Origin: an uncultured Actinomycetes bacterium
Lineage (GTDB): Bacteria > Actinomycetota > UBA4738 > HRBIN12
DNA: 64,000 nt
NCBI GenBank assembly: GCA_963706005.1
Contig: CAVPLL010000010.1
Coordinates: 162,459-226,458 of the forward strand
Reading direction: 5' to 3'
The notes under the pieces are model-generated. The model worked only from the letters and a program-made list of their open reading frames with translations. It was not told the origin of the DNA and ran no database searches. Position 1 is the stretch's first letter; the number at the start of each line of letters is the position of its first letter. The translations under genes were made by a program, and so were the position numbers. Positions 8,957 to 31,213 of the stretch are shown here, one piece after another.

Positions 8957-8963
8957 GGGCGGT

Positions 8964-9554: not shown

Positions 9555-9579
9555 GCGAGGAAGACTAAGCTGAGGCTCG

Positions 9580-10023: not shown

Positions 10024-10034
10024 GCCTACCCGCC

Positions 10035-10856: not shown

Positions 10857-12476
10857 ATGGCGAACGTCTACGACGCGATCGTGATCGGTGGTGGCCACAA
10901 CGGGCTGACGGCGGGCGCCTACTTCGCCCGCGCGGGTGCCCGAACGGTGGTACTCGAGGCCAGGAACAAGACCGGAGGCGCCGCGGACACGAGCGCGCCC
11001 TTCCCCGACCACCCCGAGATCAACGTCACGACCTACTCGTACGTCATGTCCTTGATGCCGCCGACGATCATCCGCGAGCTGAACCTGAAGCGGCACGGCT
11101 ACGACGTCACGCCGTTCGGCCCTTACTACCAGGCCTACCCGGACGGCCGTTCGATCACCGTCTACGCGGACGACGCCGCGAGGAGCTATGAGTCGATCGC
11201 CCAGTTCTCCAAGAAGGACGCCGAGACCCTCCCGCAGTGGGAGGCGTGGCTGCAGGACGTCGCGGACGTCCTCGGTCCCCTGCTCCTGCAGAAGCCGCCG
11301 AAGATCGGCTCGATGGCGTTCGGCGACCTGCTCGAGAGCGCGCGGGCCGCGTGGAAGATGCGCAGGCTCGGCGTCCGTGGCGTAGGCGACGTCACCCGGC
11401 TGTTCACGATGAGCATCACCGATCTGCTCGACGACTGGTTCGAGTCCGACCCCATCAAGGGCATGCTCGCGGTGAACGGGGTGATCGGCACGTGGGCCGG
11501 GCCGGACGAGCCGGGCACCGCCTACGTGATGCTGCACCACTCGATCGGCGACGTCGGCGACGGCCACCTCGGCTCGTGGGGGTTCCAGCAGGGCGGGATG
11601 GGGGGCGTATCGGACTCGATCCACCGATCGGCCGAGTCGTTCGGTTGCGAGGTCCGGACCGATGCTCGCGTGAGGAAGATCCTCACCGCCGGCGGGCGGT
11701 TCGTCGGGGTGGCGCTCGAGAACGGTGACGAGCTCCGTGCCCCGCTGGGCGTGACGTGCATCCACCCGAAGACTGCCTTCCTCGACCTCGTCGGCCGCGA
11801 GGAGCTGCCCGCGGACTTCGTGTGGGGCATCGAACGCTGGCGCTCGCGCTCTGGGGTCGTGAAGATCAACGTCGCGATGTCCGAGCTCCCGGACTTCATC
11901 GCCGATCCGGGCAAGGAGATGCAGGACCATCACACGGGGTCGGTCGAGCTCTGCTTCTCGCCGAAGTACGCCGAGGAGGCGTTCCAGGACGCCCACATGG
12001 GCCGCAGGGCGTCCGAACGTCCGTTCGTGGATGGCGTGATCCCGACCACGCTCGACAAGCGGCTCGCGCCCGAGGGTGTGCACGTGTTCTCGATGTTCAC
12101 GCAGTGGGTGCCCGACGACTGGAACCTCGAGCCCCACCGCGACGAGCTCGAGCAGTACGCCGATCGGATCATCGACCTCTACACCGAGCTCGCGCCGAAC
12201 TTCAAGGGCGCCGTGATCGACCGTCAGGTGCTCGGGCCGTATGACATGGAGCAGGAGCTCGGGCTGATCGGGGGCAACATCTTCCACGGCGAGCTCTCCG
12301 TCGATCAGCTCTTCCACATGCGACCGGCGCCCGGGTACGCGGACTACCGGACACCGATCAAGGGCCTGTACCACGGGTCGTCGGCTACGCACGCCGGTGG
12401 CGGCGTGAACGGCATCCCCGGCTGGCAGGCGTATCGTGCGGCCGTGAGGGATCGGGCGGTCAAGAAGCCGCGGTGA
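10857..12476 (+). CDS. phytoene-desaturase-family (CrtI-like) FAD/NAD(P)-dependent oxidoreductase
   Basis: AIVIGGGHNGLTAGAYFARAG dinucleotide fold. 539 aa. Paralog of 32534..34159. Confidence 0.8.
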   Translation: MANVYDAIVIGGGHNGLTAGAYFARAGARTVVLEARNKTGGAADTSAPFPDHPEINVTTYSYVMSLMPPTIIRELNLKRHGYDVTPFGPYYQAYPDGRSITVYADDAARSYESIAQFSKKDAETLPQWEAWLQDVADVLGPLLLQKPPKIGSMAFGDLLESARAAWKMRRLGVRGVGDVTRLFTMSITDLLDDWFESDPIKGMLAVNGVIGTWAGPDEPGTAYVMLHHSIGDVGDGHLGSWGFQQGGMGGVSDSIHRSAESFGCEVRTDARVRKILTAGGRFVGVALENGDELRAPLGVTCIHPKTAFLDLVGREELPADFVWGIERWRSRSGVVKINVAMSELPDFIADPGKEMQDHHTGSVELCFSPKYAEEAFQDAHMGRRASERPFVDGVIPTTLDKRLAPEGVHVFSMFTQWVPDDWNLEPHRDELEQYADRIIDLYTELAPNFKGAVIDRQVLGPYDMEQELGLIGGNIFHGELSVDQLFHMRPAPGYADYRTPIKGLYHGSSATHAGGGVNGIPGWQAYRAAVRDRAVKKPR

Positions 12477-14578
12477 CGTCCGGCTCGTCGGACGGACGGA
12501 GCGCGATCGAGCGGATGCTCGCGGCTCGCTCCGTGGCGGTGGTCGGCGCGAGCGTCCGCGAGGGCTCGGTCGGCAACCAGAGCGTCGTCGAGCTCGTCGA
12601 TGGCGGCTTCGACGGTCGGATCGTCCCCGTGAATCCCAAGTACGACGAGATCCTCGGGATCGCCTGCGTGGGCTCGCTGGCCGGGCTCGGCGAACCCGTC
12701 GACCTCGCGATCCTCGCGGTCTCGAACGCGCTGCTCGAGGACCAGCTTCGCCTGGCCGCGGAGGCCGGCGCCGGGAGCGCGGTGATCTTCGCGAGCGGGT
12801 ACGAGGAGCCACGCGATGGCGTGCCGTCGCTCACCGAGCGGCTCGCGGCCATCGCGCGCCACGCAGGGATGGCCGTGTGCGGTGGGAACTGCATGGGGTT
12901 CGCGAACCTCGAGCGGCGCGTGCGCGCGCTCGGCTTCTACGAGCCGAAGGACGCGCCCGTCGGCGGCGTGACGTTCCTCTCGCACTCGGGGTCGGCGTTC
13001 AGCGCGATGATCCACAACGACCGGGGACTGGGTCTGAACCTCGCGGTCTCGGCGGGGCAGGAGTTCGTGACGACGGTGGCCGACTACCTGCACTACGCCC
13101 TCGAACTCGAGAGCACGACGGTGGCGGGTCTGTTCATCGAGACCGTGCGCGACCCGAGCCGGTTCCGCTCGGCGCTCCAGCTTGCGAACGATCGCGACAT
13201 CCCGGTCGTGGCGCTGAAGGTGGGACGCGAGGAGCGAACGCGCGAGCTCGTGACCGCCCACTCGGGCGCGCTCGCGGGGGAGGACGGTGCGTACGAGGCG
13301 CTGTTCGCCGCGTACGGCGTCTCGCGCGTCGCGAGCCTCGACGAGATGGCGGACACACTCGCGCTGTTCGCCGGAGGTCGGCGAGCCGGACCCGGAGCGT
13401 TGGCGAGCGTGCACGACTCGGGAGGGGAGCGGGCGCTGCTCGTCGACGCGGCCGCGTCCGTCGGTGTCCCGTTGACCGAGATCTCGGGGGAGACCTCGGC
13501 GCGCATGGAGGCGCTGCTCGACCCGGGGCTGCCGCCGGTCAACCCGCTGGACTTCTGGGGCACCGGCAAGGACGCCCACCGCATCATCACGGGGTGCGTT
13601 CGGGCGCTGCTGGACGATCCGGCGGTGGCGGCGCTCGCGTTCTCGGTCGACCTCACGTCGGAGGACTACCCGGAGATGGGCTACGTCGCGATGGCGAGGG
13701 AGACGTTCCCCGAGACCGGCAAGCCGTTCGCCCTCCTGTCGAACTTCTCGAGCGGCATCGACCGTCGCGACGCGAAGCTGCTGGAGGGTGATGGGATCCC
13801 CGTGCTCGAGGGGACGCTCACGGGTCTGGCGGCGTTCGGGCATCTGTTCGCGTACCGGGACTTCGTCGCGCGCGAGCCCGTGACCGGTCGGTCACCCGTA
13901 TCGGGCGAGGTGCGCGAGCGGTGGATCGCGCGGCTGTCGGGCGGGGAGCCGTTCGACGAGCTCGAGGGCCTCGCGCTGCTCGCCGACTACGGCGTCCCGG
14001 TGATCGAGAGCATCCGCGCCGACACCCTCGAAGACGCGATCGCAGCGGCCGAGCGGATCGGGTTCCCCGTCGCAGTGAAGACGGCGGCGCCCGGCGTCCA
14101 GCACAAGTCCGACGTCGGAGGTGTTCGGCTGGGGGTCGACGACTCGGTCTCGTTGGAGGATGCATACAGCGACCTGGAACGCGCGCTCGGTCCCCAGGTC
14201 ACCGTCGCGCCGATGGCGCCGCCTGGGATCGAGATCGCGCTCGGCGTCGTGCGCGATCCGCAGTTCGGCCCGCTGGTGCTCGTCGGGGCGGGCGGCGTGC
14301 TCGTCGAGGTGCTGAAGGATCGGCGCCTCGCGATGGCGCCGCTCGACGAGATCCGGGCACGGTCGATGGCGGACCAGTTGAAGATCCGCCCGCTCCTCGA
14401 TGGGGTTCGAGGCCAGCCCCAAGCCGACGTGGATGCCCTCGGGAAGGCCATCGTCGCGCTGTCATGGCTCGCGCACGATCTGGGCGAACACCTCGAGGCG
14501 ATCGACGCGAACCCGGTGATCTGCGGCCCGGAGGGGTCCATCGCCGTCGACGCCCTCGTGATCCCCCGGTCCGGCTAG
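12473..14578 (+). CDS. NDP-forming acyl-CoA synthetase (acetate--CoA ligase ADP-forming type, fused alpha/beta)
   Basis: N-terminal CoA-binding and succinyl-CoA-synthetase-like domains. C-terminal ATP-grasp. ATGA overlap with the upstream gene. Confidence 0.8.
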   Translation: MTSGSSDGRSAIERMLAARSVAVVGASVREGSVGNQSVVELVDGGFDGRIVPVNPKYDEILGIACVGSLAGLGEPVDLAILAVSNALLEDQLRLAAEAGAGSAVIFASGYEEPRDGVPSLTERLAAIARHAGMAVCGGNCMGFANLERRVRALGFYEPKDAPVGGVTFLSHSGSAFSAMIHNDRGLGLNLAVSAGQEFVTTVADYLHYALELESTTVAGLFIETVRDPSRFRSALQLANDRDIPVVALKVGREERTRELVTAHSGALAGEDGAYEALFAAYGVSRVASLDEMADTLALFAGGRRAGPGALASVHDSGGERALLVDAAASVGVPLTEISGETSARMEALLDPGLPPVNPLDFWGTGKDAHRIITGCVRALLDDPAVAALAFSVDLTSEDYPEMGYVAMARETFPETGKPFALLSNFSSGIDRRDAKLLEGDGIPVLEGTLTGLAAFGHLFAYRDFVAREPVTGRSPVSGEVRERWIARLSGGEPFDELEGLALLADYGVPVIESIRADTLEDAIAAAERIGFPVAVKTAAPGVQHKSDVGGVRLGVDDSVSLEDAYSDLERALGPQVTVAPMAPPGIEIALGVVRDPQFGPLVLVGAGGVLVEVLKDRRLAMAPLDEIRARSMADQLKIRPLLDGVRGQPQADVDALGKAIVALSWLAHDLGEHLEAIDANPVICGPEGSIAVDALVIPRSG

Positions 14579-17500
14579 CTAATCGGCGGGACAGCTCGGG
14601 ACGTGGAGGTAGCGCCGGCACTCCTCGTCCGTGAACCCGCGCGTGACCCGAGACTGCGCGAGTTCGATCGCGTCCCCGAGCGCGATCGGATGCACGATGA
14701 TCCTTCCATCCGAGTAGACCGTCGTGATCCGAGACCCGTCCGGGCTGAACGCGACAGCGGCGACGTCGCTCGGTTCGACTGGCGAGGTGAAGATCAGGTC
14801 TCCCGTCGACGTGTTCCACACCCGGGCCGTTCCGTCGAGGCTTCCGGTCACGAGGCGTCTGCCATCGGCACTGAACGCGCCCGCGATGATCGGCAGCGTG
14901 TGTCCCTCAAGCATCAGCCCCTTGTCTGTGGGACGGCCTGTGGGACGGAGCCGGACATCGTCCCCCTCGAACTCGGCGACCACGTCGCCGTCCGGACTGA
15001 ACGCCACCTGGATGCGTCCACCCTCCGTGTAGACGAACCGAGAGCCGTCGGCGATGATCGCATCCCGGAAGCGATCGGGCGGCAAGGAGGACGTGATGCC
15101 GGTCGCGACGTCCTCGACCCTCCACGGGAAGGCAGAGAACAGGCGGGTCCCGTCGGGACTGAACGTGAGGACATCTGGCCGGAACGGCCAGCAGAACTCT
15201 CCGATCCCAGGCTTGCAGGTACGGTCTTTCGACACCTTCTGCCCAGTCGCGATGTCCCAGATCCGGACCGTCTCATGGCTCGCGCCGGTCGCGAGCAGGC
15301 GCCCGTCCGGACTGAGGGCCACCTGCGGGGAAAGGGCCTCGCCGAATCGACCGGGGATGCTGTTCGTGGCGGTCGGAGTGTCGCTCCGCTTCACGGCGGG
15401 CAGGCGGGTCGACGGGACGCTGAGGATCGCGTGTGCCGAGCTGACGTTCCATACGTGGGCCTTCCCCTCACCATCCCCGATCGCCAGCAGGGACGCGTCG
15501 TCGCTCAGATCGACGGTGAAGACGTCTCGACAGGCATCATCGGGGACGCATGGGACCGCAGGGTCGCTGATCGCGAACGATCGTGAGCCGTTCCGAAGAT
15601 CCCACACCCCGACCGATCCATCACGACCCACAAGAGCAACCACCGTCCCGTCGGTGGTGAACGTGAAGGCCCGGATCCCCTTGCCCACGACCGATGTCGT
15701 ATCGATCGTGACGGCGGGCGCGGCGCGGCGGAGGACGTCTTCCACCTGCGGATCGATGCGCTGATCGACGCTCCGGGCCGTCCGGAACGCCTCGAGGGCG
15801 AGCAGGGTGGCGAGCTGGTGGTCCACCTCGAGGTTCGCAGCCGCCGCCGCTGCGAGCTCGCGAGCGGCCGCGAGCCGCGACGCACGTTCGGCCTTGGCGC
15901 TCTCGTTGAGCGCGAACGCCGTGAGCGTTCCCGCCACGAGCGCCGCGACGGTCAACACCGCTACGAGTGCTCGGAGTCGCTTGACCGAGCGCCGCTCGAC
16001 CGTCCGCTCGCGCTCGCCGCGCGCCGCTTCGGCGGCGCGCTCCGTCTCTCGGCGCGCGATGCTCGCGAGCAGGTAGGCGCGCTCCCCAGGCCCGAGCGCG
16101 AGGCTCGTCGTCGAAGCCCAGGACTCGAGCTGTTCCAGGCGTGATCCGGTCAGCAGGAAGCTCGGCTCGGGGCCGCTCCGTTCCCATTCGTTCGCGGCGT
16201 CCGACAGACGCCGGTGCATCCGGAGGTCCTCGCGGCCCTCGTCGATCCACCCGCGGAGTCGCTCCCAGGCGCCGAGGAGCGCCTCGTGCGCGACCTCGAC
16301 GGTCGGCTCCCGGGTCGAAGGGTCGCGATCGAACGTGAGGAGCCGGTGACGTCCGTAGGAGTCGATGGCCGACTCCATCGCGCTCGCGTCGACCTCGATC
16401 GCCGACAGCTCGGAGAGCGGGACCCGGCGGCGCGTGTCCGCCGTCCCCTCGCCGAGCGTCACGAGCCGCAGGAACAGCTGGCGAACGGCTTCCCGGCCGG
16501 CGGGCTGTCGGGTGGCGTACAGGTGCTCGGCGCTCGCGGCGAGGGCCCCGCCGACGCCGCCGATCTCGCGGTACGCCTCGAGCGTGAGGCGTCCGTCGCT
16601 GGCGCCGGTCGTAGAGCTCGGTGAGCGCGTACTGGACGAGCGGCAGGGCGCCCGGTTGCTCGGCGACGTCCGCCGCGATCTGGGGGACGAGCGCGCCGGT
16701 CGACGTTCAGGCCCGAACGCTCCGCCGGCCGGACGATCGCCCGCTCGAGCTCCTCGGGCGTCAGTGGGCTCAGGACATCGGTGGTCGATCCGAGCAGCTC
16801 GCCGATCCGCGGGTAGCGGAGCGGTCGGTCGTAGAAGTCGGCCCGCAGCGTGACGATCGACTGCGCACCCGGCTGGCCGGGTCGGCGCTCGCGACGCGCA
16901 GACTCTCGAGGAACAGCGCCCGGTCGTCCTCGGTCTCGGTGAGGGTGAACGCCTCCTCGAACTGGTCGACGATCAGCAGGAGCTCGGTGCCGTCGGGGAC
17001 GATCGCATCCGCCACCTCGAGGAGCCCTCTCGGTCCCGACTCGAGGCGGCCGAGGAGGCCCGCGGGCGGACGCACGGCGACCCGCATCAGCGCCGCGTCG
17101 AGCTCCTCGAGCGGGTGGTGACCCGGGTGCATCTCGCTGACGAGCCAGGCGTCGGAGCCGGGGACCGCGCCGCGGCGGATCGCCGCCACCAGACCGGCTC
17201 TGACCACGGAGGACTTCCCGCTCCCACTCGGACCGACGACCGCGATGAACCTCGACGGGTGGTCCACTCGCGATAGCCGCTCGAGCAGCCGCTGGATGAA
17301 CGCCTCTCTGCCGAAGAAGTCGAGGGCGTCGGCCTCGACGAACGGCCGCAGGCCCTTGTAGGGGTTCCGGATATCGGCGACGACGGGCGCGCGGCCGTCC
17401 GTCCTCGTCCCCAGGACCGAGATGAGATCGGCGAGGACCGCCGCGTCGTCATCGGGTTCGTGCGCGAGCTCCGCCCGGCGGAGCGCCTCACCGACCGCCA

Positions 17501-18781
17501 TCGGGAGACGTTCGCCCAGCGTCTCATGAGCCAAGGCGGCGAACCCGTGCAGATCGTCCGCGGTTCGCACCGCGCCGCCTCCGATGGAGAAGTCCGTGAG
17601 GTAGGCGTTCCCCTCCTCGTCGAAGAGCACGTTCGACGCGCGGAGATCGCCGTGCACGACGCCCCGCCGATGAGCGAGCGACAGAGCCGAGGCCACGTGT
17701 TCGAGGATCCGCGTCGCTCGCTCGTGGGCAAGCTGGCCTGAGCCATCGAGGAGCTCGCGCAGGCTGCCGCCTCGGAAGAACCGGGTCACCACGTAGGCCC
17801 GGCCGGGTTCGCGCCAGTAGTCGTAGACGGGCGCGATGTGCTGGTGCTCGAGCGCCGCGACGGCCTGCGCCTCGGGTTCGAAACGGCGCACGAACGCCGG
17901 ATCGTTCGCACGATGCTCGTGCACGACCCTGACCGCGACCTCCCGGCCGACGTTCGGCTGCGTCGCTCGGTAGATGGCGCCGAACGGGTCCTCGCCGATG
18001 CGTTCGAGCAGCCGATAGCCGCGCAGCGGCTCTCCACCGAGATCCAGGTCCGGGCTCTGGGCGAGGATCCGCTCGTGCACCCGGCGAAGATCGGGCGACG
18101 GATCGATGCCGAGCTCGTCGGCCAGCATCTGGCGAGCCCGCTGATACGCGGCGAGCGCCTCCCCCTGACGGCCGGCGCGGTACAGCGCGAGCATCAGCTG
18201 CTCCCAGAAGCGCTCCCGGAGCGGATGACGTGCGGTGAGGGTCTCGAGCTCGCCGATCACGTCCCCGAACTCTCCGAGCGTGAGCTGTGCCTCGGTCCGC
18301 TCCTCGAGGGCCGCGAGACGCAGGTCGTCGAGCCGCGCCGCCTCGGATCGGAGCGACGCTTCTCCGGCGAGGTCGCGCGAAGGCCGGGCCGCGCCACAGA
18401 TCGAGCGCGTGGTCGAACGCGCCGATGGCCGCCGACGCGTCGATGGGTAGGAGTCGCCGCGCATCGCGGAGGAGCGACTGGAAGCGAACGGCATCGAGCT
18501 CCGATGGCTCGGCCCGGAGCACGTAGCCCGCCCGGCTTCCCTCGAGCCGCTCGGCCCCCAACGCCTTGCGGAGGTGCGAGGCGTAGCTCTGGAGGGCGTT
18601 GCGAACCGTCTCGGGCGGCTCCTCTCCCCACACCTCGTCGATCAGCACGTCCGTCGGGACGAGATGGTTGGCGCGCAGGAGCAGGTGGGCGAGGACCGCC
18701 CGCTGCTTCGGGCCCCCCGAGCGCGATCGGGCCGCGACCGTTCTCGAGGACCTCGATCGCCCCCAGGACCCGGAACTCCAT
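14579..18781 (-). pseudogene. decayed paralog of the giant wHTH/BTAD-Ser/Thr kinase-STAND NTPase-TM-WD40 protein
   Basis: Homologous segments lie in at least four different minus-strand frames (18847-18710, 18648-18375, 18494-16770, 16462-14579). One shift maps to a missing base in a GCGCG run near 18375. Kinase motifs are degenerate (VAVR in place of the catalytic VAIK lysine; HGD for HRD; DFS for DFG). The P-loop GPSGSGKSS, TM helix and WD40 repeats are still recognisable. Confidence 0.6.
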
Positions 18782-18864
18782 CGGGCGACGGTAGCCCCTG
18801 GTCGTCGAGATGGGAATGCCGGGCTCCGCCGACGTGCGAGCGTTCACGGCGAGAGCGTCGGCGT

Positions 18865-18897
18865 GGTCGCTGAAAGGTCGCTGAAAGGGTCGGCTCA
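18865..18897. repeat. 11-bp tandem direct repeats (ggtcgctgaaa x2 plus a degenerate third) in a divergent promoter
   Basis: Two perfect copies and one degenerate copy with helical-turn (11-bp) periodicity. Located between pseudogene start 18781 and the HExxH gene at 19045. Confidence 0.5.
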
Positions 18898-19044
18898 GCG
18901 CGCCTCACGCCATCGACACCGGGGGTTCATGAGCCCGGCTCGACCGTTCGCCCATGCGCACGATCGGTCGGCTCGGAGCTCTCGATCCTCGCTCTGGCGA
19001 TACTCGTCGGCTCATGGTCGCTCGCCTCCGGACAGGCATCGGGG

Positions 19045-19527
19045 ATGGAGGTGCGGCCCGGGGTCGTTGTGTTCTCGGACGATCGACCGCAGCGCGAGCT
19101 GGTCCGGTGGGCGGTGACGCGGTTCGAGCGTGCGGGACTGGGCGCTCCGACCGTCGAGATCCGTTTCCACGCGAGCAAGTCCGGGTGCGGCGGTCACCTC
19201 GGCTACGCGAAGGATGGTCGGGTCGACGTGTGCACGGTGCTCGTCAACGAGATGGCACGCCGGAACCTGCTCCACGAGATGGGCCATATCTGGATCGACC
19301 AGAACGTCGAGAGGTCGGTGCGCGATCGGTTCCTGCGGCTCCGTGGCCTGCAGGCGTGGAACGTATCGACGGACGCGTGGGAGGAGCGGGGCTACGAGCA
19401 GGGAGCCGAGATCATGGCGTGGACGCTCGGGAACCGGATCCTCAGCGCGCAGGTCCCGAACAACGACCCCTCGCCGCTCGCTGCGGGGTTCGAGCTCCTG
19501 ACGGGCATCGCCCCTCCGCCGGGGTAG
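19045..19527 (+). CDS. small HExxH (HEMGH) zincin-like protein, copy 1
   Basis: 160 aa. Paralog of 25331..25909, sharing CGG(H/N)LG(Y/F)AK(D/G)GR(V/I)D(V/L)C and LLHEMGHIW motifs. No obvious signal peptide in this copy. Confidence 0.55.
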   Translation: MEVRPGVVVFSDDRPQRELVRWAVTRFERAGLGAPTVEIRFHASKSGCGGHLGYAKDGRVDVCTVLVNEMARRNLLHEMGHIWIDQNVERSVRDRFLRLRGLQAWNVSTDAWEERGYEQGAEIMAWTLGNRILSAQVPNNDPSPLAAGFELLTGIAPPPG

Positions 19528-19575
19528 AGGGCCCGACCGAGCTCATCTGCGCTCGGATCGACCGTGGGCGCGCCG

Positions 19576-22500
19576 CTAGGCGATCCGCGTCCACTCGTAG
19601 GATCCGTAGATCTGTTGCAGCAGCTGCTCGAAGAACGCTCGATCACCGCACGGGACCGCGACGGTTTCGACGTCGCCCATCGTCAGCCGCGTCCCGCCGA
19701 GGGACCACCGCGCGGACACCTCCAGGCCGAAGCATCCAGGATCCTGCCGATCGGTGAGGGTGATCCGATCGCCCGACACCGTGTAGGTCCCGGACGTCTC
19801 CGTCGTGCCGCCGTCGGGTCGGTCTTGGTGGAGACGCCACTCGCCGTCGAAGATCGACAGCGTGTAGTCACCGACGTTCTCCTCGATCTCTCGCTTCGAG
19901 GATGCGCCCGCCAGGTCGGCGGGGGCGATCGTGACGCGGAAGGCCCCCTCGGGGCCCTCGGCCGAGGATGTTGACGTGGTCCCCGTGCCGTTCGGCGGCC
20001 CGATCTCGGGTGAAGCTGGACAACGAGCCACGTGGAGGTACTGACGACACTCGTCCCGGGTGAGACCGCGAGTGAGGCGCGTTCGAGCGAGCCGGATCAG
20101 GTCGTCGAGCTCGAGCGCGTACTCGCGAACCGTACCGTCCAGGCTCGACGTCGCGATCTCGGATCCAGCGGGACTGAACGCGACCCCGCTCAGGGCGTCC
20201 GTGGAGCCATACAGCGTGAGGATCTTCCGACCCGTCGCGGCAGCCCACAGCCCGGCCGTGCCGTCCTGGTCCGCAGTGGCGACGAGCGTCCCATCGGGGC
20301 TGAACGCCACGTCAGCGACGTTGCCTGCGTTGCCGGCGAGCGTGGCGACGTTCGCTCCCGACGGCATCGCCCAGAGTGCCGCGCCGTCCGCTCCCGACGT
20401 CGCGAGCGTGGTCCCGTCCGGGCTGAACGCGATCGCGCTGCCGTTGCTCGAGTGCGCCTCGAACCGGAGGACCTCCGTTCCCCTGGACACGTCCCAGACG
20501 TGCGCCGTGCCGATCCCGTTGATCCCCGCCAGGAGGGTTCCGTCCGGGCTGAACGACAGGCTCGTGATGTTGTTGATCTTCGCTGCGGGTTCGCCGAGGG
20601 TCGCGATCCGTGCCCCCGTGGACGCGTCCCATATGGCGACGGTGCCGCTCCCGTCGGTACCGGCGCCGAGGCCGCCCGCGATCAGCGAGCCGTCTGGGCT
20701 GTACGCCACGCTCTCGATCCAGTCCTCCTCGTCCAGCGTCATCTCCGCGATGACGTTGTCGGACGAGGCGTCGCGAACCAACGGATGGCCCGCTGTGACG
20801 AAGCGTCGCCCGTCCGGGCTGAAGACGGCTTCGTTCCACCCGCCCGACGAGGCGCTCCCCGATCTCCTCCCCCGAGGTCGCGTCCCACTGGCGGACGGCC
20901 AACCGCCCGTCCATCGCGATCAGGCGCGCGCCGTCCGGACTGTACGCGACGCTGTCGACGTTCGCCGGCGCCCCGATGGTCACCAGCTCGTGGCTGCCCG
21001 AAGGCGAGATATCCCACGCGCGAACCGTTCCGTCACTACTTCCCGTCAGGAGACGCGCACCATCGGGGGAGAATCGGATCTCGAAGATGGTGCCGGCGTG
21101 ACCACGGAGCACGAGCAGCTGCTCGCCGCTCCGGGCGTCCCAGATCCGTGCCGAGCCGTCGTCCCCGGCCGTGGCGAGCCGTTGCCCGTCGGGGCTGTAG
21201 GCGACCGCCCAGACCGGTCCGGTCTGCTCGTCCAGCTCCATCAGCTCGCGACCCGTCCGCGCGTCCCAGATCCTCGTCCCCCCATCGAAGTCCGATGTCG
21301 CGAAGTGACGATCATCGGGGCTGTAGGCGATGCCCAATGCCGAGTTGTCGAGCGTGAACACGCGATCCCCGGTCCGTACGTCCCAGACGACCGTCTTGCT
21401 GGGCCCGAAGTTCACGGTGGCGGCGACGCGGGTGCCGTCGGGGTTGAACGCCACGCTGAGGAACCCGGACCCGGGCACTCGCATCCTGCGCAGCTCCCGT
21501 CCGGTTCCGGCATCGAGGATCGACACGATCCCGTCCGATCCCACCACCGCGAGCAGGCTCCCGTCAGGGCTGAAGGCGAGGCTCGACGGGATCTCGGGCA
21601 TCCTGCCGAGGTTCACGGTCCACGCCTGCGTCCAGGAGCGCGTATCCCACACGACCACGGTCGAATCTCCCCAGATCGACGCGAGCCGCTCACCATCTGG
21701 GCTGAACGACGCATCGCCGAAGTCCGTGTTGGGCAGTGGCGGCAGCGTTTCGAGCCTGTCGCCCGTGACGGCATCGCGGACGATCAGTTCATTCGTGATC
21801 GGGCCGCCGGGGGGATCGGTTGGACCCTGCGTGACGAGCAGGCGTCCGTCGGGGCTCGATGCGAAGAAGCCGCCCCAGGAGATGTTGCGGAGCGCGAGGA
21901 CCTGGCGATCCGCCGACACGGCTCGGTGGAGCGCTTGCTCGGCCTCCTGGGTCGCGGACCCGTCTTCGTGCGTGGCGTCCACGGCTGCGAGGGCCAGGAG
22001 GATGCTGCGTTCGGGATCGATCTCCAGGTTCGTGATAGCTGCACCGGCCAGCTCGCGGGCGGTGGCGACGCGCGACTCGCGCTCGGCCCGGCTCCGCTGC
22101 TTCACCGCCACCACCGTGAGGGTCGAAGCGACGAGCGCTGCGGCCACTCCGAGCGCGACCAGTCCCCGCATCCGGCGGACGGACCGGCGCTCGAGTCCGA
22201 GTTCGCGGGCGACGCGCGTTTCCTCTTCGGCCCGCTCAACGTCTCGGAGTCGGACGCCTTCGTCCAGGTAGGCGCGGTCGTCGGCCGAGAGGGCGATCGT
22301 GGTGGTCTCGGCCCACGCGACGGTGCTCTCCAGCCGACCGCCGCGTAGCAGGAAGCTCTCGTCCCGGTCGCCCTGGATCCATTCCGATGCGGATACGGCG
22401 AGCCCGTTCCGGATCCGCAGGTCCTCGCGCGCCTCGTCGATCCAGCCTCCGAGCCGCGACCACGCGCGGAGGAGGGCCTCGTGCGCGATCTCGATCATCG

Positions 22501-25195
22501 GTTCGCGCGTCGAGGGATCGCGGTCGAACGACAGGAGGCGGTGCCGCCCGAAGGCCTCGATCACGGCGTCCATCGCTCGGCCGTCCAGGTGCGGAAGCTC
22601 CGAGCGGCGGACCCGGCGTCGGGTGTCCTCGGTGCCCTCACCGAGCGTCACGAGCCGCAGGAACAGCTGGCGGCAGGCGACGGCCCCGGCGTCGTCGAGC
22701 GCGTCGTACAGGTGCTCCGCACGGCGGGCGAGCGCCCCCGACACCCCCCCGATACGCCGGTACGCGTTGATCGTGAGTGAGGCGACATCCTCGCGATCGG
22801 CGAGCTCGGTCAACGCGTACTGCAGGAGCGGCAGCGCGCCCGGACGGTCGATCACGTCCGCGACCATCGCCGCGACGAGTCCCGGCTCGACGTCCAAGCC
22901 GACGCGCTCGGCCGGACCGACGATCGCGCGTTCGAGCTCTTCGGGGGACATCGGCGTGATCGCCTCCGTCCGGGCGGCGAGCAGGTCGCCGAAGCCGCGG
23001 ACCGATAGCGGTTGGTCGAAGAAGTCGGCTCGGAGCGTGGCGACGACGCGGACGCGGCTCGACGGGTCGGACGCCGCGACCCGGATGCTCTCCAGCACGT
23101 GCGTGCGTTCGGCGTCCGAGTCGACCATCGTGAAGAGCTCCTCGAGCTGATCGAGCACGATCAGCAGCTCGGCATCCGGATCCGGCAGGAGCCGGTCGAC
23201 CGCGCGGACGAGCCCGGACTCGTCGCGTTCCAGGTCATCCAGCAACGACGGCGGTGGGTCGACGCCCACGCCGAGCAGCGCCCGCTCGAGCTCTCGGAGG
23301 GGCTGGGACCCGGGGAGCAGGTCGATGACGTACCAGCGCTCGGAGCCGGGGATCACGCCTCGGCGGATCGCCGGCACGAGCCCCGCCCGGACCACGGACG
23401 ACTTCCCGGAGCCCGACGGGCCGACGACGCACAGGAACCGGGCGGCGCCGTTCTCGGCGAGCCGTTCGAGGAGCCGCCTCGTGAGAACCTCACGCCCGAA
23501 GAAGTCGGCGCTGTCGGGCTCGAGGAACGCCCGGAGTCCCTTGTACGGGTTGCGGATCTCGCCACGAGCGAGGACCCGTGCGGCGGAGCCCTCGATCGCG
23601 CCACGGTAGGCGGCGCAGAGCTCGAGCACGTGGGCGAACCTCGCCTGAGGATCCTTCGCGGTGGCGCGGGCGATCGCGACGTCGACGCCGGGCGCGATCT
23701 CCGGCCGCGACTCGCGGACCGAGGGCATCGGCTGGTGCAGGTGCTGGTCCAGCAGCACGTTCAGCGAGATACCGGGGAAGGGATGCTTCCCCGTGAGCAT
23801 CTCGTACAGCACGACACCGAGCGCGTAGATGTCCGAGCGTGCCGACGTCTGCTCGAGCCTGATCTGCTCGGGCGACAGGTACGCCGGCGTCCCCCGGATC
23901 ATCGTTCCCGCGGTCTGCTCGGGCGCGCCGGTCTCGAGCGCGATGCCGAAGTCGGACAGGTACGCGTTGCCCTGCTCGTCCAGCAGCACGTTGCCGGGCT
24001 TCACGTCGCGGTGCACGACGCCCTGGCTGTGAGCGGCGGCGAGCGCGGCGCCGATCTGATCCAGGAGGTCCGCCGCGCGCTCGGCCTCCAGCGGCCCGTC
24101 ATCGAGCACCGTCTCGAGGCTCCCGCCCCGCAGGTACCGCATGATCAGGTAGGCGGCGTTCGGCTCGCGCCAGTAGTCGTACAGGGGCACGATGTGCGGG
24201 TGCTCGAGGCGCGCCACGAGTTGCGCTTCGCGCTCGAACCGCCGCACGAAGTCCGGCTGGTTCGCGAGCTCCGAATGGATCGACTTGATCGCGACCTCGC
24301 GCTCGACCTGCGGTTGGATCGCCCGATACACGGAACCGAACGCTCCCTCTCCGATCTTCTCGAGCAGGCGGTAGCCGCGCAGCGGCTCCCCCGGGAGCTG
24401 GAGCGAGTCGTCCTGGCGGAGCACCCGCTCGTGGATGTCCTGGAGCTCCCGAGACGGGTCGATCCCGAGCTCGTCGGCCAGGAGCTCCCGCGCGCGGTCG
24501 AACGCCGCCAACGCCTCCGCCTGGCGGCCGGACCGGTACAGCGCGAGGATGAGCTGGCCCCACAGCCGCTCCCGCGTGGGGTGAGCGGCGGTCGCGGCCT
24601 CGAGCTCGGCGACCACCTCGAGGTGCTGGCCGAGGTCGAGCCTGGCCGCGATGCGTTCCTCCACGGCCACGAGGCGCAGCTCCTCGAGCCGTGCGATCTC
24701 GCCGAGGAGTGACGGCTCGAAGGCTAGGTCCGCGAGCGCCGGGCCGCGCCAGAGCTCGAGCGCCTCGTCGAGCACCTCGAGGGCCGCCTTCGGCTCCAGG
24801 CCGTCCTCGCTGGCCTCCTTCAGGAGCGTCTCGAATCGGAAGGCGTCGATCTCCTCCCGGTCGGCGTGGAACCGGTAGCCGGGCGCCTCGCCCTCGATGC
24901 GTTCCGATCCGAGCACTCCGCGCAGACGCGAGACGTAGGTCTGCAGGGTCGCCCGGGCGGTGTCCGGCGGCTCTTCGCCCCAGACCGCGTCGATCAGGTG
25001 ATCCATCGGCACGGTCCTGTTCGCCCGCAGGAGCAGGTGCGCGAGCACCAGCCGCTGCTTGGGGCCCCCGATGACGATCGGGCCGTCGTCCACGGAGGCG
25101 GCGAGGGGGCCGAGGAGCTGGTACCGCACCGCCGAACGGTACCTCCGAGCCTGCACGCGTGGAACCCCTTGTCCCCGTGCGTACGTCGTCGACAT
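19576..25195 (-). CDS. giant multidomain protein: OmpR/SARP-type wHTH + BTAD + Ser/Thr protein kinase + STAND P-loop NTPase + TM helix + WD40 propeller + C-terminal extra domain (apparent frameshift near 20780-20850)
   Basis: Start MSTTYARGQ... or MPAM (25195/25204). Kinase motifs GEGAFGSVYRA, VAIK, HRDVKPGNVLL, DFG. Walker A VVGPSGSGKSSVVRAG and Walker B LLIVLDQLEE. Hydrophobic helix LVALGVAAALVASTLTVVAV. Seven or more WD repeats continue in a second frame (track ORF 19576..20781). Confidence 0.65.
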
Positions 25196-25217
25196 GGCGG
25201 GCATCGTGAGCGAGGCC

Positions 25218-25312
25218 CCTTGCAAGACGCATGCAGAGCTCAGCCTGCAAGGGTGCCCGATCCATCGTCTGCGAGGCGATTGCAAGCCGGGCGCGGTCGC
25301 GATGCATGCGGG
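25218..25312. promoter_or_regulatory. divergent promoter with repeated TGCA-core motifs (ttgcaag x2, ctgcaag, atgcaga, gcatgc x2)
   Basis: Imperfect inverted repeat cccttgcaag...cctgcaaggg. Several repeat spacings are 11 or 22 bp. Confidence 0.35.
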
Positions 25313-25330
25313 TGAGCAGAACGTGCCCCC

Positions 25331-25909
25331 ATGCGAACCATCATCCGCATCGGCCTCGAGGTCGCGCTCGCCGCCGCAGTCGCGGCGTTCGGGTCGCTGC
25401 CCGAGGCCGCAGAGGCGTCGGTGGAGGTCCGGCCGGACGTCCTCCTCTACGGGGCGACCGCCGAGCAGATCGACCTCGGGCGCTGGGCCGTGCGCCGATT
25501 CGAGGCGGCCGGCCTGGAGACGCCGGACGTGGAGGTCCACTTCCAAGACGATGTGTCCGGATGCGGCGGGAACCTCGGTTTCGCGAAGGGCGGCCGGATC
25601 GACCTCTGCATGAGGCTCGTGCACGCGGGGGCGCGTCGGGCCCTGCTCCACGAGATGGGGCACATCTGGCTCGACGAGAACCTCGGGCCGGCCGTGCGGA
25701 CCCGCTTCCTTGAGCTCCGCGGCCTCTCCTCATGGAACTCCTGGGACGAACCGTGGAGGTTCCGGGGGTACGAGCAGGGCGCCGAGGTTCTGGCGTGGGC
25801 GCTCGGAGAGCGGACCATCACCCCGGCGATCCCGGACAACGAGCCCAAGAAGCTCGAGACGGCCTACCGGCTGCTCACCGGCGATCCTCCGCCGCCCGCC
25901 ATGGTGTGA
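25331..25909 (+). CDS. small HExxH (HEMGH) zincin-like protein with N-terminal signal peptide, copy 2
   Basis: 192 aa. N-terminus MRTIIRIGLEVALAAAVAAFGSLPEAAEA. Conserved Cys pair, HEMGH, and a downstream GYEQGAE glutamate. Confidence 0.6.
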   Translation: MRTIIRIGLEVALAAAVAAFGSLPEAAEASVEVRPDVLLYGATAEQIDLGRWAVRRFEAAGLETPDVEVHFQDDVSGCGGNLGFAKGGRIDLCMRLVHAGARRALLHEMGHIWLDENLGPAVRTRFLELRGLSSWNSWDEPWRFRGYEQGAEVLAWALGERTITPAIPDNEPKKLETAYRLLTGDPPPPAMV

Positions 25910-25915
25910 GCGTCA

Positions 25916-27520
25916 TCAGCCGTCGTCGGGCCAGCCAGCTTCGAGGCTGGTCAAGATCCGCGGATCGTCTCCGTCGAGCGGACCGAAACCGTTCTGAGCC
26001 GTGGCTTCTAGACGAAGGCGCTGGGGTCGGGCTGGGTCCCCGCGGGCCACCCGGGGTAGGTGTCGCCCGGGTACTCCGACGGTTTGCCGTAGCAGTGGTC
26101 GATCTGCGGGAGCGGCTTCGCGTCGGTGCGCGGGATTCCGTCCGAACGCGAACGCGTGCTCGAAGTTGTGGGTACGCTCGATCCGTTGGGTCAGGTACGG
26201 CAGGCCCCAGTTGTCCGAGATGAACTTCAGCGGGGTCGAGAACTCGGCCTCGGCGTCGTCGACGTAGCCCTTCCTCGCGTACGGGCTGATCAACAGGGTC
26301 GGTACACGGAACCCGAAGCCGATGTCGTCCACCTCAGGCGGCGGGACGTGGTCGTAGAACCCGCCCCACTCGTCCCACGTGACGAACAGCGCCGTGTGCT
26401 CCCAGTCGTCGCTCTGCATGATCGCGTTCACGACGCCGGTGAGCCAGTTGTGCGCGAAGCACGTGCTCTCGGGTGGGTGATCGGAGAGCTCGAACCGCGG
26501 CGTGACCCACGTGACCGCGGGGAGCCGCCCGGCGCGGATGTCGGCGGGCAGGCGGTCGACCGAACGGATCCGCTCGGGCCTCCACAGGTCGGAGTGGAAC
26601 ACGCCCGCGATGCCGTTCAACGCGTTCCAGAAGTACCCGGGTTGTCCGGGCTGGGCCGAGTAGTACGCCCAGGGGACGCCGGCCTCCTCGAGCTGTTCGG
26701 GAACGGTCTTGAAGGTGAAGCAGGAGTCGTGCTTGGTGAGGTTGCCCTGCTCGTCCTTCACGAGGACGAAGACGTTCTCGCCGACGGCGTCGCACCCCCA
26801 GCTCTTGAACGTTCGACCGTCCTGCATCGTGCGGACCTCGATGTTCTCCGGGTTGTCCAGCGCCCCGCCGGACTGCCCGGCCACGAAGAAGAAGTGGTTG
26901 GGGTAGGAGGGTCCACCCACGGAGCCGAAGAAGTTGTCGCAGAGCACGTAGTCGCGCGCCCACGCCCAGTAGTTCGGGATGGACGTGCCCTCGAACTGCG
27001 TGTACGCCCACGGGTCGCCGAACTGGCCGTTGCCGAACCCGTCGTACGTGCCGCCGTTCACGTCGTTCAGGTGCGCCGCGCGGTCGTGGGGGATGTCGCC
27101 GGGGAGCCAGTGCGGGCTCGAGGTGAGCGGGACCTCCTGCCCGAACTTCACGCCGACGGTCGCGCCGTTCGCGCCGGGGAACCGCCCGAACAGGTTGTCG
27201 AAGCTCCTGTTCTCCATCATCAGGTAGATCACGCGCTTGATCGGCCACTGCGTCTCGGTCGCCACGACCGACGCGGTGGCGCTCGGGCCGACGACCGGTT
27301 GCTTGCGGCCGCCGCCGGTGCACGCGTACATCGTCGCCCCCGCCAGTGCGAACGCGGACGTGCGCAGGAACGAGCGCCGCGAGAACAGGGGGGAATCGTC
27401 GTGGCCGAGACGCTGATACCGGGAACGGTCGTCGGGAGCGGGCGGGTCCGAGATCTGCACGGTTGCCCAAGCTATCAAGCGGGTCCGCGAACGATATCCT
27501 TCCTCGACCCCCAGACCCAT
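25916..27520 (-). CDS. Tat-secreted phosphoesterase family protein (phospholipase C / acid phosphatase type)
   Basis: SRRSFLRTSAFALAGA Tat motif. Phosphoesterase-family motifs (MENRSFDNLFG, DHPPE). The true start is probably internal (possibly GTG). Confidence 0.7.
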   Translation of the reverse strand: MGLGVEEGYRSRTRLIAWATVQISDPPAPDDRSRYQRLGHDDSPLFSRRSFLRTSAFALAGATMYACTGGGRKQPVVGPSATASVVATETQWPIKRVIYLMMENRSFDNLFGRFPGANGATVGVKFGQEVPLTSSPHWLPGDIPHDRAAHLNDVNGGTYDGFGNGQFGDPWAYTQFEGTSIPNYWAWARDYVLCDNFFGSVGGPSYPNHFFFVAGQSGGALDNPENIEVRTMQDGRTFKSWGCDAVGENVFVLVKDEQGNLTKHDSCFTFKTVPEQLEEAGVPWAYYSAQPGQPGYFWNALNGIAGVFHSDLWRPERIRSVDRLPADIRAGRLPAVTWVTPRFELSDHPPESTCFAHNWLTGVVNAIMQSDDWEHTALFVTWDEWGGFYDHVPPPEVDDIGFGFRVPTLLISPYARKGYVDDAEAEFSTPLKFISDNWGLPYLTQRIERTHNFEHAFAFGRNPAHRREAAPADRPLLRQTVGVPGRHLPRVARGDPARPQRLRLEATAQNGFGPLDGDDPRILTSLEAGWPDDG

Positions 27521-28187
27521 GCATCAGCACAGGTTCTCCACCGCGATCGCCGTGATGGGCGTCGTGCTCTCGCTCGTCGCATGCACCGGCGACGCGGAGC
27601 CCGACGCGCCGTCGACCACCCCCCCGGCGACACCTATCTCCGGGACCGGCCCGACGGCCTCGCCGACGCCGCCCGCCCTTCCCGAGGAGCCCCCCGCGAC
27701 GCACGGCCCGGCCGCGAGCGACTGCGTGAACGGGTGGGCGACGCCACAGCGAGGCTCCGACCGGTACGCCGAACCGCTCCGGGTGATCCGCAAGGTGACC
27801 GGCGTGCGTGGCCCGTTGGTGGTCGTGGACATGCGGTCGTTCGAGGGCCCCGAGTCTCCGCCCTCGGACAAGGGGTACCTGCTGGACATCCGCCGCTGGT
27901 ACGTGAAGGCGTTCGCGAAGGACGACCCGTCGTTCCAGGGAAGGTTCCTGGCGGAGTCCCGAACCTTCGGGACCGGCCTGGTCGCGGTCGCCCCCTACGA
28001 CACGGACGGCTTCCGCTCGCCGGACTGGGTGGGGTTCCAGTTCGACAGCGCGGACCCGTTGGCGCGTCCGTATCCGGGGTTGCCCGGCCGATGGGCGGGG
28101 ATCCCCTACGACTTCGTCGCCGGCGGCGCGGGGCTGCAGATCCCCGGACTGCCCGACGAGGTGGTCGGCTGCCTCTCAGCGACCTGA
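27519..28187 (+). CDS. lipoprotein of unknown function
   Basis: Signal peptide with lipobox LVAC, then a Pro/Thr-rich linker. 222 aa. Confidence 0.45.
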   Translation: MHQHRFSTAIAVMGVVLSLVACTGDAEPDAPSTTPPATPISGTGPTASPTPPALPEEPPATHGPAASDCVNGWATPQRGSDRYAEPLRVIRKVTGVRGPLVVVDMRSFEGPESPPSDKGYLLDIRRWYVKAFAKDDPSFQGRFLAESRTFGTGLVAVAPYDTDGFRSPDWVGFQFDSADPLARPYPGLPGRWAGIPYDFVAGGAGLQIPGLPDEVVGCLSAT

Positions 28188-28221
28188 TCAGCCGCCCGGG
28201 TGACGTCCGCCCGGACCCTGC

Positions 28222-29184: not shown

Positions 29185-29243
29185 CGGCTCCTCCTTCGAC
29201 GATGTACGCGGCCGGCCCGGGGCCGTTCCGGCAGCAGTATCGG

Positions 29244-30419: not shown

Positions 30420-30502
30420 GTTCGGCCTCCCGGTCCGGTCGCGGTCCGGAGTCTACGGGGCGCGACCGGACCGGGCGCTAGGATGGCCGGCCGGGAGGGC
30501 GG

Positions 30503-31192: not shown

Positions 31193-31213
31193 TCGACGCC
31201 GGACCCTGGAACG

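Follow-up and report, generated by a model that had tools for sequence, protein, structure and literature searches.

The 64-kb window (the whole stretch of 64,000 nt that was analysed) contains two adjacent divergent gene pairs, i.e., module 1 (14579-19527) and module 2 (19576-25909). This agrees with the duplicated two-gene unit that the first-pass annotation had claimed. With somewhat better than even confidence, we interpret the giant protein of each pair as a transmembrane one-component SARP/STAND activator that would drive the divergent gene of a secreted zincin. The features are listed below.

Module 1
14579..18781, minus strand: giant-1, ~1398 aa after frame correction (reading frames, Pfam, alignment to L003, GC3 HMM)
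14582..15670, minus strand: giant-1 predicted extracytoplasmic WD40 propeller (Pfam WD40), ending in ECRRYLHVPSCPAD
15908..15970, minus strand: giant-1 predicted TM helix ALVAVLTVAALVAGTLTAFAL (Kyte-Doolittle 2.27, sole such segment)
16223..17372, minus strand: giant-1 nSTAND1 NTPase (PF20703, E 9e-117)
16953-16982, minus strand: giant-1 Walker B LLLIVDQFEE
17208-17234, minus strand: giant-1 Walker A GPSGSGKSS
17577..18017, minus strand: giant-1 degenerate kinase N-lobe (Pkinase profile positions 1-144 of 263)
18045..18781, minus strand: giant-1 SARP module (Trans_reg_C winged helix, E 3e-8; BTAD, E 7e-44)
18866..18887, plus strand: 22-bp box, putative SARP operator, two exact 11-bp direct repeats GTCGCTGAAAG
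18954..19527, plus strand: small zincin 1, ~190 aa if repaired; signal peptide, Cys pair, HEMGH; true start MRTIGRLGA

Module 2
19576..25129, minus strand: giant-2, ~1850 aa from GTG 25129, one frameshift near 20842
19579..21868, minus strand: giant-2 predicted extracytoplasmic part, ~14 WD40 blades
20017-20052, minus strand: giant-2 ECRQYLHVARCP, between the WD40 blades and a Pro/Thr/Ser linker
22103..22165, minus strand: giant-2 predicted TM helix GLVALGVAAALVASTLTVVAV (Kyte-Doolittle 2.36)
22418..23557, minus strand: giant-2 nSTAND1 NTPase (PF20703, E 7e-115)
23138-23167, minus strand: giant-2 Walker B LLIVLDQLEE
23396-23422, minus strand: giant-2 Walker A
23606..24373, minus strand: giant-2 Ser/Thr kinase domain (Pkinase, E 2e-54)
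25219..25288, plus strand: operator-like repeats, conserved in L003b, L009 and L020
25219-25240, plus strand: repeat pair CTTGCAAGACG/CATGCAGAGCT, 11-bp units
25244-25252, plus strand: repeat CCTGCAAGG
25268-25288, plus strand: repeat pair TCTGCGAGGCG/ATTGCAAGCC, 11-bp units
25331..25909, plus strand: small zincin 2, 192 aa, intact; signal peptide ending in AEA followed by S, C78/C93, H107-E108-xx-H111, GYEQGAE

Reading frames and integrity of the modules

The sequence as given encodes neither giant in a single ORF. Five single-base corrections restore the frame of giant-1 (near 18715, 18376, 16862, 16697 and 16600) and a single one near 20842 that of giant-2, where the deposited protein P0121 (1605 aa) stops. 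These breaks are backed by alignment to intact orthologues as well as by a GC3 frame HMM. A further frameshift near 18980 splits MRTIGRLGA from the remainder of small zincin 1, for which the first-pass ORF started at 19045.

With its six frameshifts, module 1 as sequenced could be non-functional in this organism. That is, it may be a decaying pseudogene pair, possibly along with giant-2, such that at most one unit is functional here. We consider this possible but doubtful. It would fit the local frameshift density (6 in module 1, which spans 4.95 kb, vs. about 2 in about 21 kb of neighbouring genes compared with orthologues) and the frameshifted giant-1 orthologues in L005/L006, L008 and L017. 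Decay is at odds with the corrected frames, none of which holds an in-frame stop, and with the type-1 giants that are intact in L003, L004, L016, L018 and L022. Furthermore, giant-1 aligns to the intact 1437-aa orthologue of L003 in blocks of alternating frame (78-97% identity), and the block-wise amino acid identity to the L003 orthologue of 60-97% resembles the 69-90% of the flanking genes. The phosphoesterase gene adjoining module 2 is frameshifted, too, and such breaks are common across related MFD MAG loci on contigs named contig_N. From this naming we infer long-read assemblies, in which case the breaks would point to indel errors.

Domain content and membrane topology of the giants

For both giants, Pfam reports Trans_reg_C, BTAD (E 1e-42 to 1e-44), Pkinase, nSTAND1 (PF20703, E 1e-115 to 1e-117) and WD40. 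The domain order given by the first-pass annotation (SARP, kinase, STAND NTPase, TM, WD40) holds once the frames are corrected, and the motifs FFGRE, GPSGSGKSS and LIVLDQLEE are found as it had quoted them. Its length of ~1800 aa and its Ser/Thr kinase apply to giant-2 (~1850 aa, complete kinase) but not to giant-1 (~1398 aa, N-lobe remnant). Giant-1 (type 1) consists of a wHTH with BTAD, a truncated pseudokinase, nSTAND1, the TM helix, a single WD40 propeller and, at the C-terminus, the Cys-pair motif. Its kinase part has VAIK changed to VAVR, HRD to HGD (HGDLRASN) and DFG to DFS and lacks the C-lobe; this remnant of ~149 aa recurs in type-1 orthologues. Giant-2 (type 2) combines wHTH and BTAD with a complete Hanks kinase (VAIK; HRDVKPGN at 23990-24013; DFG at 23939-23959), nSTAND1, the TM helix, two WD40 propellers, the Cys-pair motif and a C-terminal extension of ~145 aa. 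The C-terminal domain after its Pro/Thr/Ser linker has a second Cys pair, and a search with the extension yields just a sub-threshold Lipocalin_4 match.

Between nSTAND1 and WD40, where a TM helix had been proposed, a single 19-mer per giant stands out as strongly hydrophobic (Kyte-Doolittle 2.27 in giant-1 and 2.36 in giant-2, vs. 1.4 for the next-best segment). All 118 homologues (118/118) share such a helix ~420 aa past Walker A, with a median value of 2.48 vs. 1.36 for the next-best segment. The number of Cys residues is even C-terminal of the helix in 114/118 homologues and N-terminal of it in 56/118; giant-1 itself has none before the helix and six after it, arranged as three close pairs. 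In sister proteins, a solute-binding domain (SBP_bac_1/8) replaces the WD40 part after the same helix while the Cys motif is kept. Hydropathy, Cys parity and this domain swap support the topology put forward earlier, i.e., a cytoplasmic SARP/kinase/NTPase part and a WD40 propeller predicted to be extracytoplasmic. Alternatively, the giant might be entirely cytoplasmic and the segment a helix that is buried or peripheral, which would make the protein a soluble STAND regulator with a WD40 sensor, comparable to AfsR with its TPR. Known STAND proteins are mostly soluble and the helix has positive charge on both flanks, both in line with this reading. Still, we judge it improbable given values of 2.3-2.5 over 19-21 residues in every homologue, which far exceed all other segments, a Cys parity that is even solely on the C side, and SBP_bac_1/8 domains, which normally work outside the cytoplasm.

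Small zincin proteins

The Cys pair and HEMGH motif claimed for the small proteins are present in both. A signal peptide had been described as a feature of copy 2; small zincin 1 encodes one as well, masked by the frameshift, and the signal-peptide-like N-terminus is therefore not particular to copy 2. The anticipated zincin-like fold is seen, with the Pro-Pro endopeptidases PPEP-2 and PPEP-3 as closest structural relatives at fold level only (~10% identity). At sequence level, Pfam, NCBIfam and PDB give no match. Identity to PPEP-1, -2 and -3 (M34-like secreted gluzincins) is only ~10%, and in contrast to these the small-zincin family has its own conserved Cys pair and GYEQGAE motif.

Operator-like repeats and conservation of the pairing

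The module-1 box precedes the ATG of the small gene by 67-89 nt. Exact 7- to 11-mers with an 11-nt period are fixed at this place (-89 to -67) in most of nine type-1 loci, and both repeat copies change together between loci, with GCTTGAAG in some. Type-2 loci carry a distinct TGCAAG-type array, i.e., the paralogous modules differ in their repeat (GCTGAAAG vs. TTGCAAG). Both motifs are unique in the 64-kb window and lie in their own intergenic regions, against 0.06 (module 1) and 0.02 (module 2) expected occurrences. Downstream of the module-1 box we found no canonical TANNNT -10, just a conserved TCAGC block at a distance of 6-8 nt. The sites bound by SARPs are direct repeats of a heptamer, arranged in 11-bp units and overlapping the -35 region (PMC10972967). 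At the afs box (-40 to -19), which precedes a weak -10, a SARP dimer occupies the two 11-bp repeats (PMC10936776). By analogy, this published binding matches the repeat layout of the modules. In L027 and L028, similar repeats are also found in the sense orientation of the giant itself, so that the repeats may serve autoregulation instead of target activation.

The claimed conservation of the pairing is borne out as well. The giant is located divergently upstream of the small gene in 13/20 species-representative genome loci, and the pairing is also found in metagenome loci L001-L006, at L029 (SBP-type giant) and at L032 (remote zincin). Given that 7/20 of the genome loci have no adjacent giant and the sampled giants of L027, L028 and L030 no zincin, the pairing is frequent, not obligatory. 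Related giants are paired with other divergent secreted or lipoprotein genes, where TGAAAG repeats occur, and in L012-L015 the STAND regulator ahead of related zincin genes is another one, i.e., AAA_16-TPR-GerE.

Proposed mechanism and alternative explanations

In the regulator-and-target model, a single helix would hold the giant in the membrane with its propeller(s) facing outward as sensor. Like the STAND regulators AfsR and MalT, the nSTAND1 NTPase inside the cell would act as a nucleotide-dependent switch or oligomeriser; the fused Ser/Thr kinase of type 2 may add phosphorylation control, and in type 1 only the pseudokinase remnant is left of the kinase. A side-by-side pair of N-terminal SARP domains would sit on the two 11-bp direct repeats of the divergent intergenic region and activate transcription of the small gene. 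Its product, presumably a Sec-exported, disulfide-containing, small gluzincin-like metallopeptidase, would act outside the cell and thus in the sensor's compartment. That is, ligand sensing, NTP switching, DNA binding, small-gene activation and peptidase activity are what we infer from the features above. The membrane-tethered cytoplasmic part of 1000 aa must reach chromosomal DNA, which is plausible by analogy to ToxR/CadC. Since the repeats differ between the paralogous modules, the two should be insulated from each other.

Alternatively, the secreted zincin may cleave the ectodomain or the Pro-rich linkers of the giant, which would either release or activate the cytoplasmic SARP part, like site-1 cleavage in regulated intramembrane proteolysis, or turn signalling off as feedback. 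Both partners are predicted in one compartment, and the known substrates of PPEPs, of which PPEP-2 and PPEP-3 are the nearest structural relatives, are surface proteins encoded beside the protease gene. In giant-2 (CPASPEIGPPNG) and likewise in SBP variants (CPPLPEEAPAG...RPAPPGQP), the conserved Cys-pair motif has Pro-rich linkers behind it. Against this, giant-1 ends right after the Cys motif without a linker, neither a site-2 protease nor a cleavage motif was identified, many giants have no zincin, zincin genes also stand beside AAA_16-TPR-GerE regulators, which are cytoplasmic and lack an ectodomain, and the PPEP similarity is confined to the fold. We rate such cleavage as unlikely; it can coexist with the regulator-and-target model. 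Three observations favour this simpler model: each small gene is preceded by SARP-type 11-bp direct repeats, related giants also occur with different secreted or lipoprotein cargo, and related zincin genes come after the AAA_16-TPR-GerE regulator. An NLR-like conflict or defence system has a low probability in our view. Here, the nSTAND1 protein would have an immune-type role in sensing invaders or competitors, with kinase, SARP domain and zincin as effectors of a locus that diversifies under conflict. The definition of nSTAND1 comes from predicted counter-invader systems (PMC8195603), the slot between CoA-ligase and phosphoesterase genes holds varying giant and cargo combinations in related genomes, and the modules are multi-copy with frequent frameshifted copies. 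PADLOC yields only generic kinase-domain matches, i.e., no Avs or STAND defence model and no match for the zincin. Like the non-immune STAND regulators AfsR and MalT, the giants have a DNA-binding activator as predicted output, next to an operator-like site; a toxic effector domain is absent, and an external sensor is at odds with the intracellular sensing of phage proteins by bacterial STAND defences.

Comparison with known systems

M. tuberculosis PknD and Streptomyces AfsK have a Hanks kinase inside, a beta-propeller outside and a single TM helix; giant-2 is predicted to share this arrangement. The PQQ repeats of AfsK are mentioned in PMC1262709. As from AfsK to AfsR and from PknH to EmbR, the kinase pathway would feed a SARP, here with kinase, SARP and STAND switch as part of a single polypeptide. 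Like AfsR-type large SARPs (SARP, NB-ARC, TPR) and SARP-LALs, the giants start with a winged helix and BTAD, fused to an NTPase of the STAND class and, at the C-terminus, to a sensor made of repeats. The giants also share with the AfsR type the predicted binding site, a pair of 11-bp direct repeats in front of the target, and the coupling of phosphorylation to the regulator (AfsK phosphorylates AfsR). They differ from it in the NTPase (nSTAND1, not NB-ARC), the sensor (WD40 or SBP, not TPR, and placed outside by the predicted TM helix), the kinase fused in cis, and the proposed target, i.e., a secreted zincin and not a biosynthetic cluster or afsS. With nSTAND1 conflict proteins (Kaur et al. 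2021, PMC8195603) they share the PF20703 NTPase (E about 1e-115) and the tripartite order of N-terminal output, NTPase and C-terminal repeats; the output is, however, a DNA-binding activator with kinase and not a TIR/caspase/trypsin effector or effector-associated adaptor domain, and the sensor is predicted outside the membrane.

The giants also resemble regulators in which the tethered protein itself binds DNA. In ToxR/CadC-type proteins, as predicted here, one TM helix links a cytoplasmic N-terminal winged helix of the OmpR type to a sensor outside the cytoplasm. Past the winged helix, the giants share nothing with them in sequence, and in the giants BTAD, kinase and STAND switch (~900 aa in total) separate the DNA-binding domain from the membrane.

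The architecture had been called undescribed, and indeed the SARP classes distinguished in the reviews consulted (small, medium, large, SARP-LAL) contain no match. It is, on the other hand, built from known parts, and thousands of homologues are already auto-annotated in databases. That is, the modules represent an uncharacterised signalling design that is widespread in uncultured soil Actinomycetota.

Reading frames of the two modules

The two adjacent modules proposed in the first-pass annotation are present, i.e., each comprises a giant gene on the - strand (giant-1 in module 1, giant-2 in module 2) and a small gene divergent to it on the + strand. The giants are not, as had been assumed, encoded by single open reading frames in the given sequence. 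Three-frame translation, tblastn with intact orthologues and a GC3 frame HMM agree on the sites at which the frames are broken.

Near 18715 (G6 run), 18376, 16862, 16697 and 16600, - strand: five single-base frameshifts in giant-1
Near 20842, - strand: one frameshift in giant-2
18954, + strand: true start of small gene 1 (MRTIGRLGA), which has its own frameshift near 18980

Because of the latter frameshift, small protein 1 had been read as a 160-aa product without a signal peptide. The corrected frames contain zero stop codons, and their similarity to orthologues equals that of the flanking genes. With six breaks in its 4.95 kb, module 1 lies above the local background. The breaks may be assembly errors or may reflect recent decay. 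Frameshift-like breaks are frequent in related MAG loci bearing contig_N names, and orthologues of the giant-1 type (type 1) are unbroken in the loci L003, L004, L016, L018 and L022. An apparently natural split of a giant at its TM helix in L005/L006 (916 + 496 aa) proved to be another frameshift and was dropped as evidence.

The phosphoesterase gene (PF04185-like) that adjoins module 2 (25916-27520, - strand) is also frameshifted, with a break near 26120; compared with the L003 orthologue, which is intact at 481 aa, residues 1-447 lie in one frame and residues 441-481 in another. The GC3 frame HMM marks two same-strand frame changes near 44134 and 63185 with no stop codon close by; these could represent additional frameshifts in other, unrelated genes.

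G+C content is ~70% across the window. The exact module-2 small protein (P0001) and the deposited giant-2 protein (P0121, which ends at the frameshift) are encoded on one and the same NCBI/ENA contig. The relatives that we found all come from metagenomes or MAGs labelled uncultured Actinomycetes / Actinomycetota.

Domains and predicted topology of the giants

Pfam searches with the frame-corrected giants recovered each of the domains that had been read from the sequence, i.e., Trans_reg_C and BTAD, Pkinase, nSTAND1 and WD40 in both proteins. Both show the SARP layout of an OmpR-type winged helix (Trans_reg_C, E 3e-8 in giant-1; for giant-2, P0121 has a precomputed PF00486 match) followed by BTAD (E 2e-42 and 7e-44 in the two giants). 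The nSTAND1 profile (PF20703) is matched over positions 1-378 of 379 with E 7e-115 and 9e-117, and Walker A (GPSGSGKSS) as well as Walker B (hhhhDQxEE) are intact in both.

The size of about 1800 aa given for the giants holds for giant-2, which has ~1850 aa counted from GTG 25129 and ~14 WD40 blades, but not for giant-1, which comprises ~1398 aa after frame correction and one propeller. Giant-2 carries a complete Hanks-type kinase (VAIK, HRDVKPGN, DFG; Pkinase E 2e-54), and its C-terminal extension of ~145 aa has no significant family match in Pfam, only a sub-threshold one to Lipocalin_4. Giant-1 does not qualify as a Hanks-type kinase: its match covers Pkinase profile positions 1-144 of 263 with no C-lobe, and the motifs of the catalytic Lys, HRD and DFG are altered to VAVR, HGDLRASN and DFS. 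This kinase remnant is also present in the type-1 orthologues, and giants 1 and 2 are therefore old, distinct paralogues. The tandem layout of type 2 (giant-2-like) plus type 1 is seen again in L003/L004, L005/L006 and L018.

A TANNNT-like hexamer, TACCGT, is found at 18788-18793 and 25136-25141 (ACGGTA on the + strand, TACCGT on the - strand), i.e., 6 nt 5' of the start codon in both giants, and is kept upstream of nearly all orthologous giants. Its position suggests that the giant transcripts are leaderless or very short-leader, and favours GTG 25129 over ATG 25195 as the start codon of giant-2.

Each giant has a single standout hydrophobic segment (KD 2.27 and 2.36), located between NTPase and propeller. 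In 118/118 homologues, the top hydrophobic 19-mer lies ~420 residues past Walker A, with a median KD of 2.48 vs 1.36 for the runner-up. Cys counts are even C-terminal to this helix in 114/118 homologues and N-terminal to it in 56/118; giant-1 has no Cys up to residue 937, followed by three close pairs. A sizeable group of homologues (~1560-1600 aa) carries SBP_bac_1/8 solute-binding domains instead of WD40, while sharing the same preceding helix and the same Cys-pair motif. Taken together, hydropathy, Cys parity and the SBP variants back the proposed arrangement, in which the SARP/kinase/NTPase part is cytoplasmic and the sensor extracytoplasmic. The giants are predicted from sequence to be receptors that cross the membrane once and have their sensor outside.

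The small proteins form a new zincin family

A word-indexed search yielded 280 matches to the small-protein family, and an exhaustive search (E of 1e-3 or better) 1422 cluster representatives, corresponding to ~1400 clusters at 50% identity. The small proteins have no match in Pfam (even at E 10), NCBIfam or a PDB profile search. When aligned, they share a basic-hydrophobic-AxA segment at the N-terminus and the invariant residues C78, C93, H107, E108, H111, E148 and E152. The AF2 model has high confidence (pLDDT 87.7, pTM 0.81). HExxH lies on an active-site helix inside a zincin fold, as had been expected from the motif. Candidate third zinc ligands are E148 and E152 in GYEQGAE, 37-41 residues past H111. 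At the sequence level the family stands apart from the PPEP / M34 peptidases, to which the structural alignments give only 10-11% identity. The small proteins are thus predicted to be secreted and gluzincin-like, and the sequence family that they form is new.

In L003, the zincin beside the type-2 giant (5305-5577) is called at just 90 aa and aligns with residues 1-68 of small protein 2 of the window; this copy is truncated, and the rest of the locus is intact.

Operator-like repeats between the divergent genes

The intergenic region of module 1 contains the following box.

18866-18887: 11-bp repeat GTCGCTGAAAG in two exact copies, 67-89 nt 5' of the small-gene ATG

Other type-1 loci show the same repeat layout at the same distance from the small-gene ATG, and in some of them both copies are altered together to GCTTGAAG. 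Module 2 and its orthologues have a distinct array in 11-bp units, i.e., TTGCAAG / ATGCAGA / CTGCAAG plus TCTGCGAG / ATTGCAAG. Each paralogue's motif is found once in 64 kb, where 0.06 and 0.02 occurrences are expected. Direct repeats in 11-bp units are the published signature of SARP sites (PMC10972967), and we consider the module repeats to be putative SARP sites that are conserved and paralogue-specific. The intergenic regions of L027 to L030 likewise contain TGAAAG repeats.

We found no canonical TANNNT -10 element downstream of the module-1 box but a conserved TCAGC block only. Both paralogue types further share a conserved block, located 3' of the repeats and 5' of the small-gene ATG (~18905-18950; ~25290-25330), that reads TCATGAG/TGCATG(A/C)G ... 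CGTGC ... CATGCGCAC. This block may serve as a 5' UTR element or as the site of a second regulator.

Conservation of the pairing and locus context

The pairing of giant and zincin recurs in related genomes: within the species-representative genomes, a giant is directly divergent upstream of the zincin gene in 13/20 loci, and the pairing is also seen in metagenome loci. In L029, an SBP-type giant is paired with a zincin in the same syntenic slot, and the remote zincin of L032 is likewise paired with a giant. In four genomes (L012-L015, e.g., L014 4528-10552), the zincin gene instead follows, in the same orientation, the gene of another STAND regulator, AAA_16-TPR-GerE (LAL/MalT-like); in L014, a Lon protease gene precedes this regulator. 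The giants of L027 and L028 have other divergent cargo, every one encoding a secreted protein or lipoprotein, and the sampled giant of L030 has no divergent partner.

The slot that has the DAO/CoA-ligase genes (10857-14578) on one side and the phosphoesterase/222-aa/ROK genes (25916-29200) on the other is a hotspot of variation. Among the loci compared (L003, L005/L006, L027, L029), it holds type 2 plus type 1 modules, a single WD40 giant together with a PD40 lipoprotein and a secreted protein of 347 aa, or an SBP-type giant paired with a zincin. L005/L006 (10583-19024) has PIN, ParE and PhdYeFM toxin-antitoxin genes and fragmented WD40 genes between successive giant-zincin modules, and several extra zincin copies of 196-198 aa. 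The modules are flanked by paralogues (7793-12476, 29247-34156), i.e., acyl-CoA dehydrogenases of ~48% and amine-oxidase/DAO proteins of ~46% identity. This suggests that a segment around the locus was duplicated long ago.

Discussion

The component parts of the giants are all previously known, and databases already auto-label them as BTAD/SARP/WD40/kinase proteins. Their combination differs from known systems: AfsR-like large SARPs have a central NB-ARC and C-terminal TPR, whereas the giants have nSTAND1 (AAA_16 weakly) and WD40, with neither NB-ARC nor TPR among the Pfam matches listed for them. None of the published SARP classes (small, medium, large AfsR-like, SARP-LAL) covers a membrane-spanning form that is based on nSTAND1 and fused to a kinase, and in the STAND surveys consulted, STANDs that are transcription factors are treated as soluble and non-immune. 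We found no description of a membrane-tethered or kinase-fused SARP-STAND in the open-access literature, an absence that is no proof.

The best-supported reading is that each module consists of a one-component activator that spans the membrane and the gene that it targets. The external propeller (or the SBP domain in the sister proteins) would be the sensor, the nSTAND1 domain would switch or oligomerise, with the fused kinase modulating in type 2, and the SARP pair would bind the 22-bp box and thereby turn on the gene of the secreted zincin. The resemblance to PPEPs, together with the Pro-rich linkers, makes it conceivable that the zincin also acts on the sensor or on the sensor's ligand. A more far-reaching version, which we regard as rather unlikely, takes the giant as a transmembrane NLR-like receptor, i.e., a STAND NTPase switch with external ligand-sensing WD40/SBP part, a fused SARP domain for direct DNA binding and a fused kinase, which would control a secreted PPEP-like zincin that processes the receptor ectodomain or its ligand and so closes an extracellular feedback loop. 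The defence-like role that had also been suggested gains no support from PADLOC, where matches (PD-T4-6, mad6, Stk2) are confined to the kinase domain at residues 250-520 and the zincin has none. Since these matches concern a generic kinase only, we reject filing the modules under a known defence system.

STAND/NLR-type switches are generally regarded as soluble intracellular sensors, and SARP regulators are known as soluble activators of antibiotic gene clusters. The giants unite both parts in one polypeptide that is predicted to span the membrane and would relay an external signal directly to a promoter. With a clear predicted operator and target gene and thousands of homologues in soil metagenomes, the family is a compact model for how a STAND switch can be driven across a membrane and for combined kinase and NTPase control on a SARP; the giant-zincin modules likewise are a model for the role of the small secreted zincins, a family that is both new and very large. 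The paralogue-specific pairs of repeat and regulator could act as orthogonal expression switches in actinomycetes. If the NLR-like receptor reading were true, the giants would represent an undescribed class of one-component transmembrane signalling that is abundant in uncultured soil Actinomycetota.
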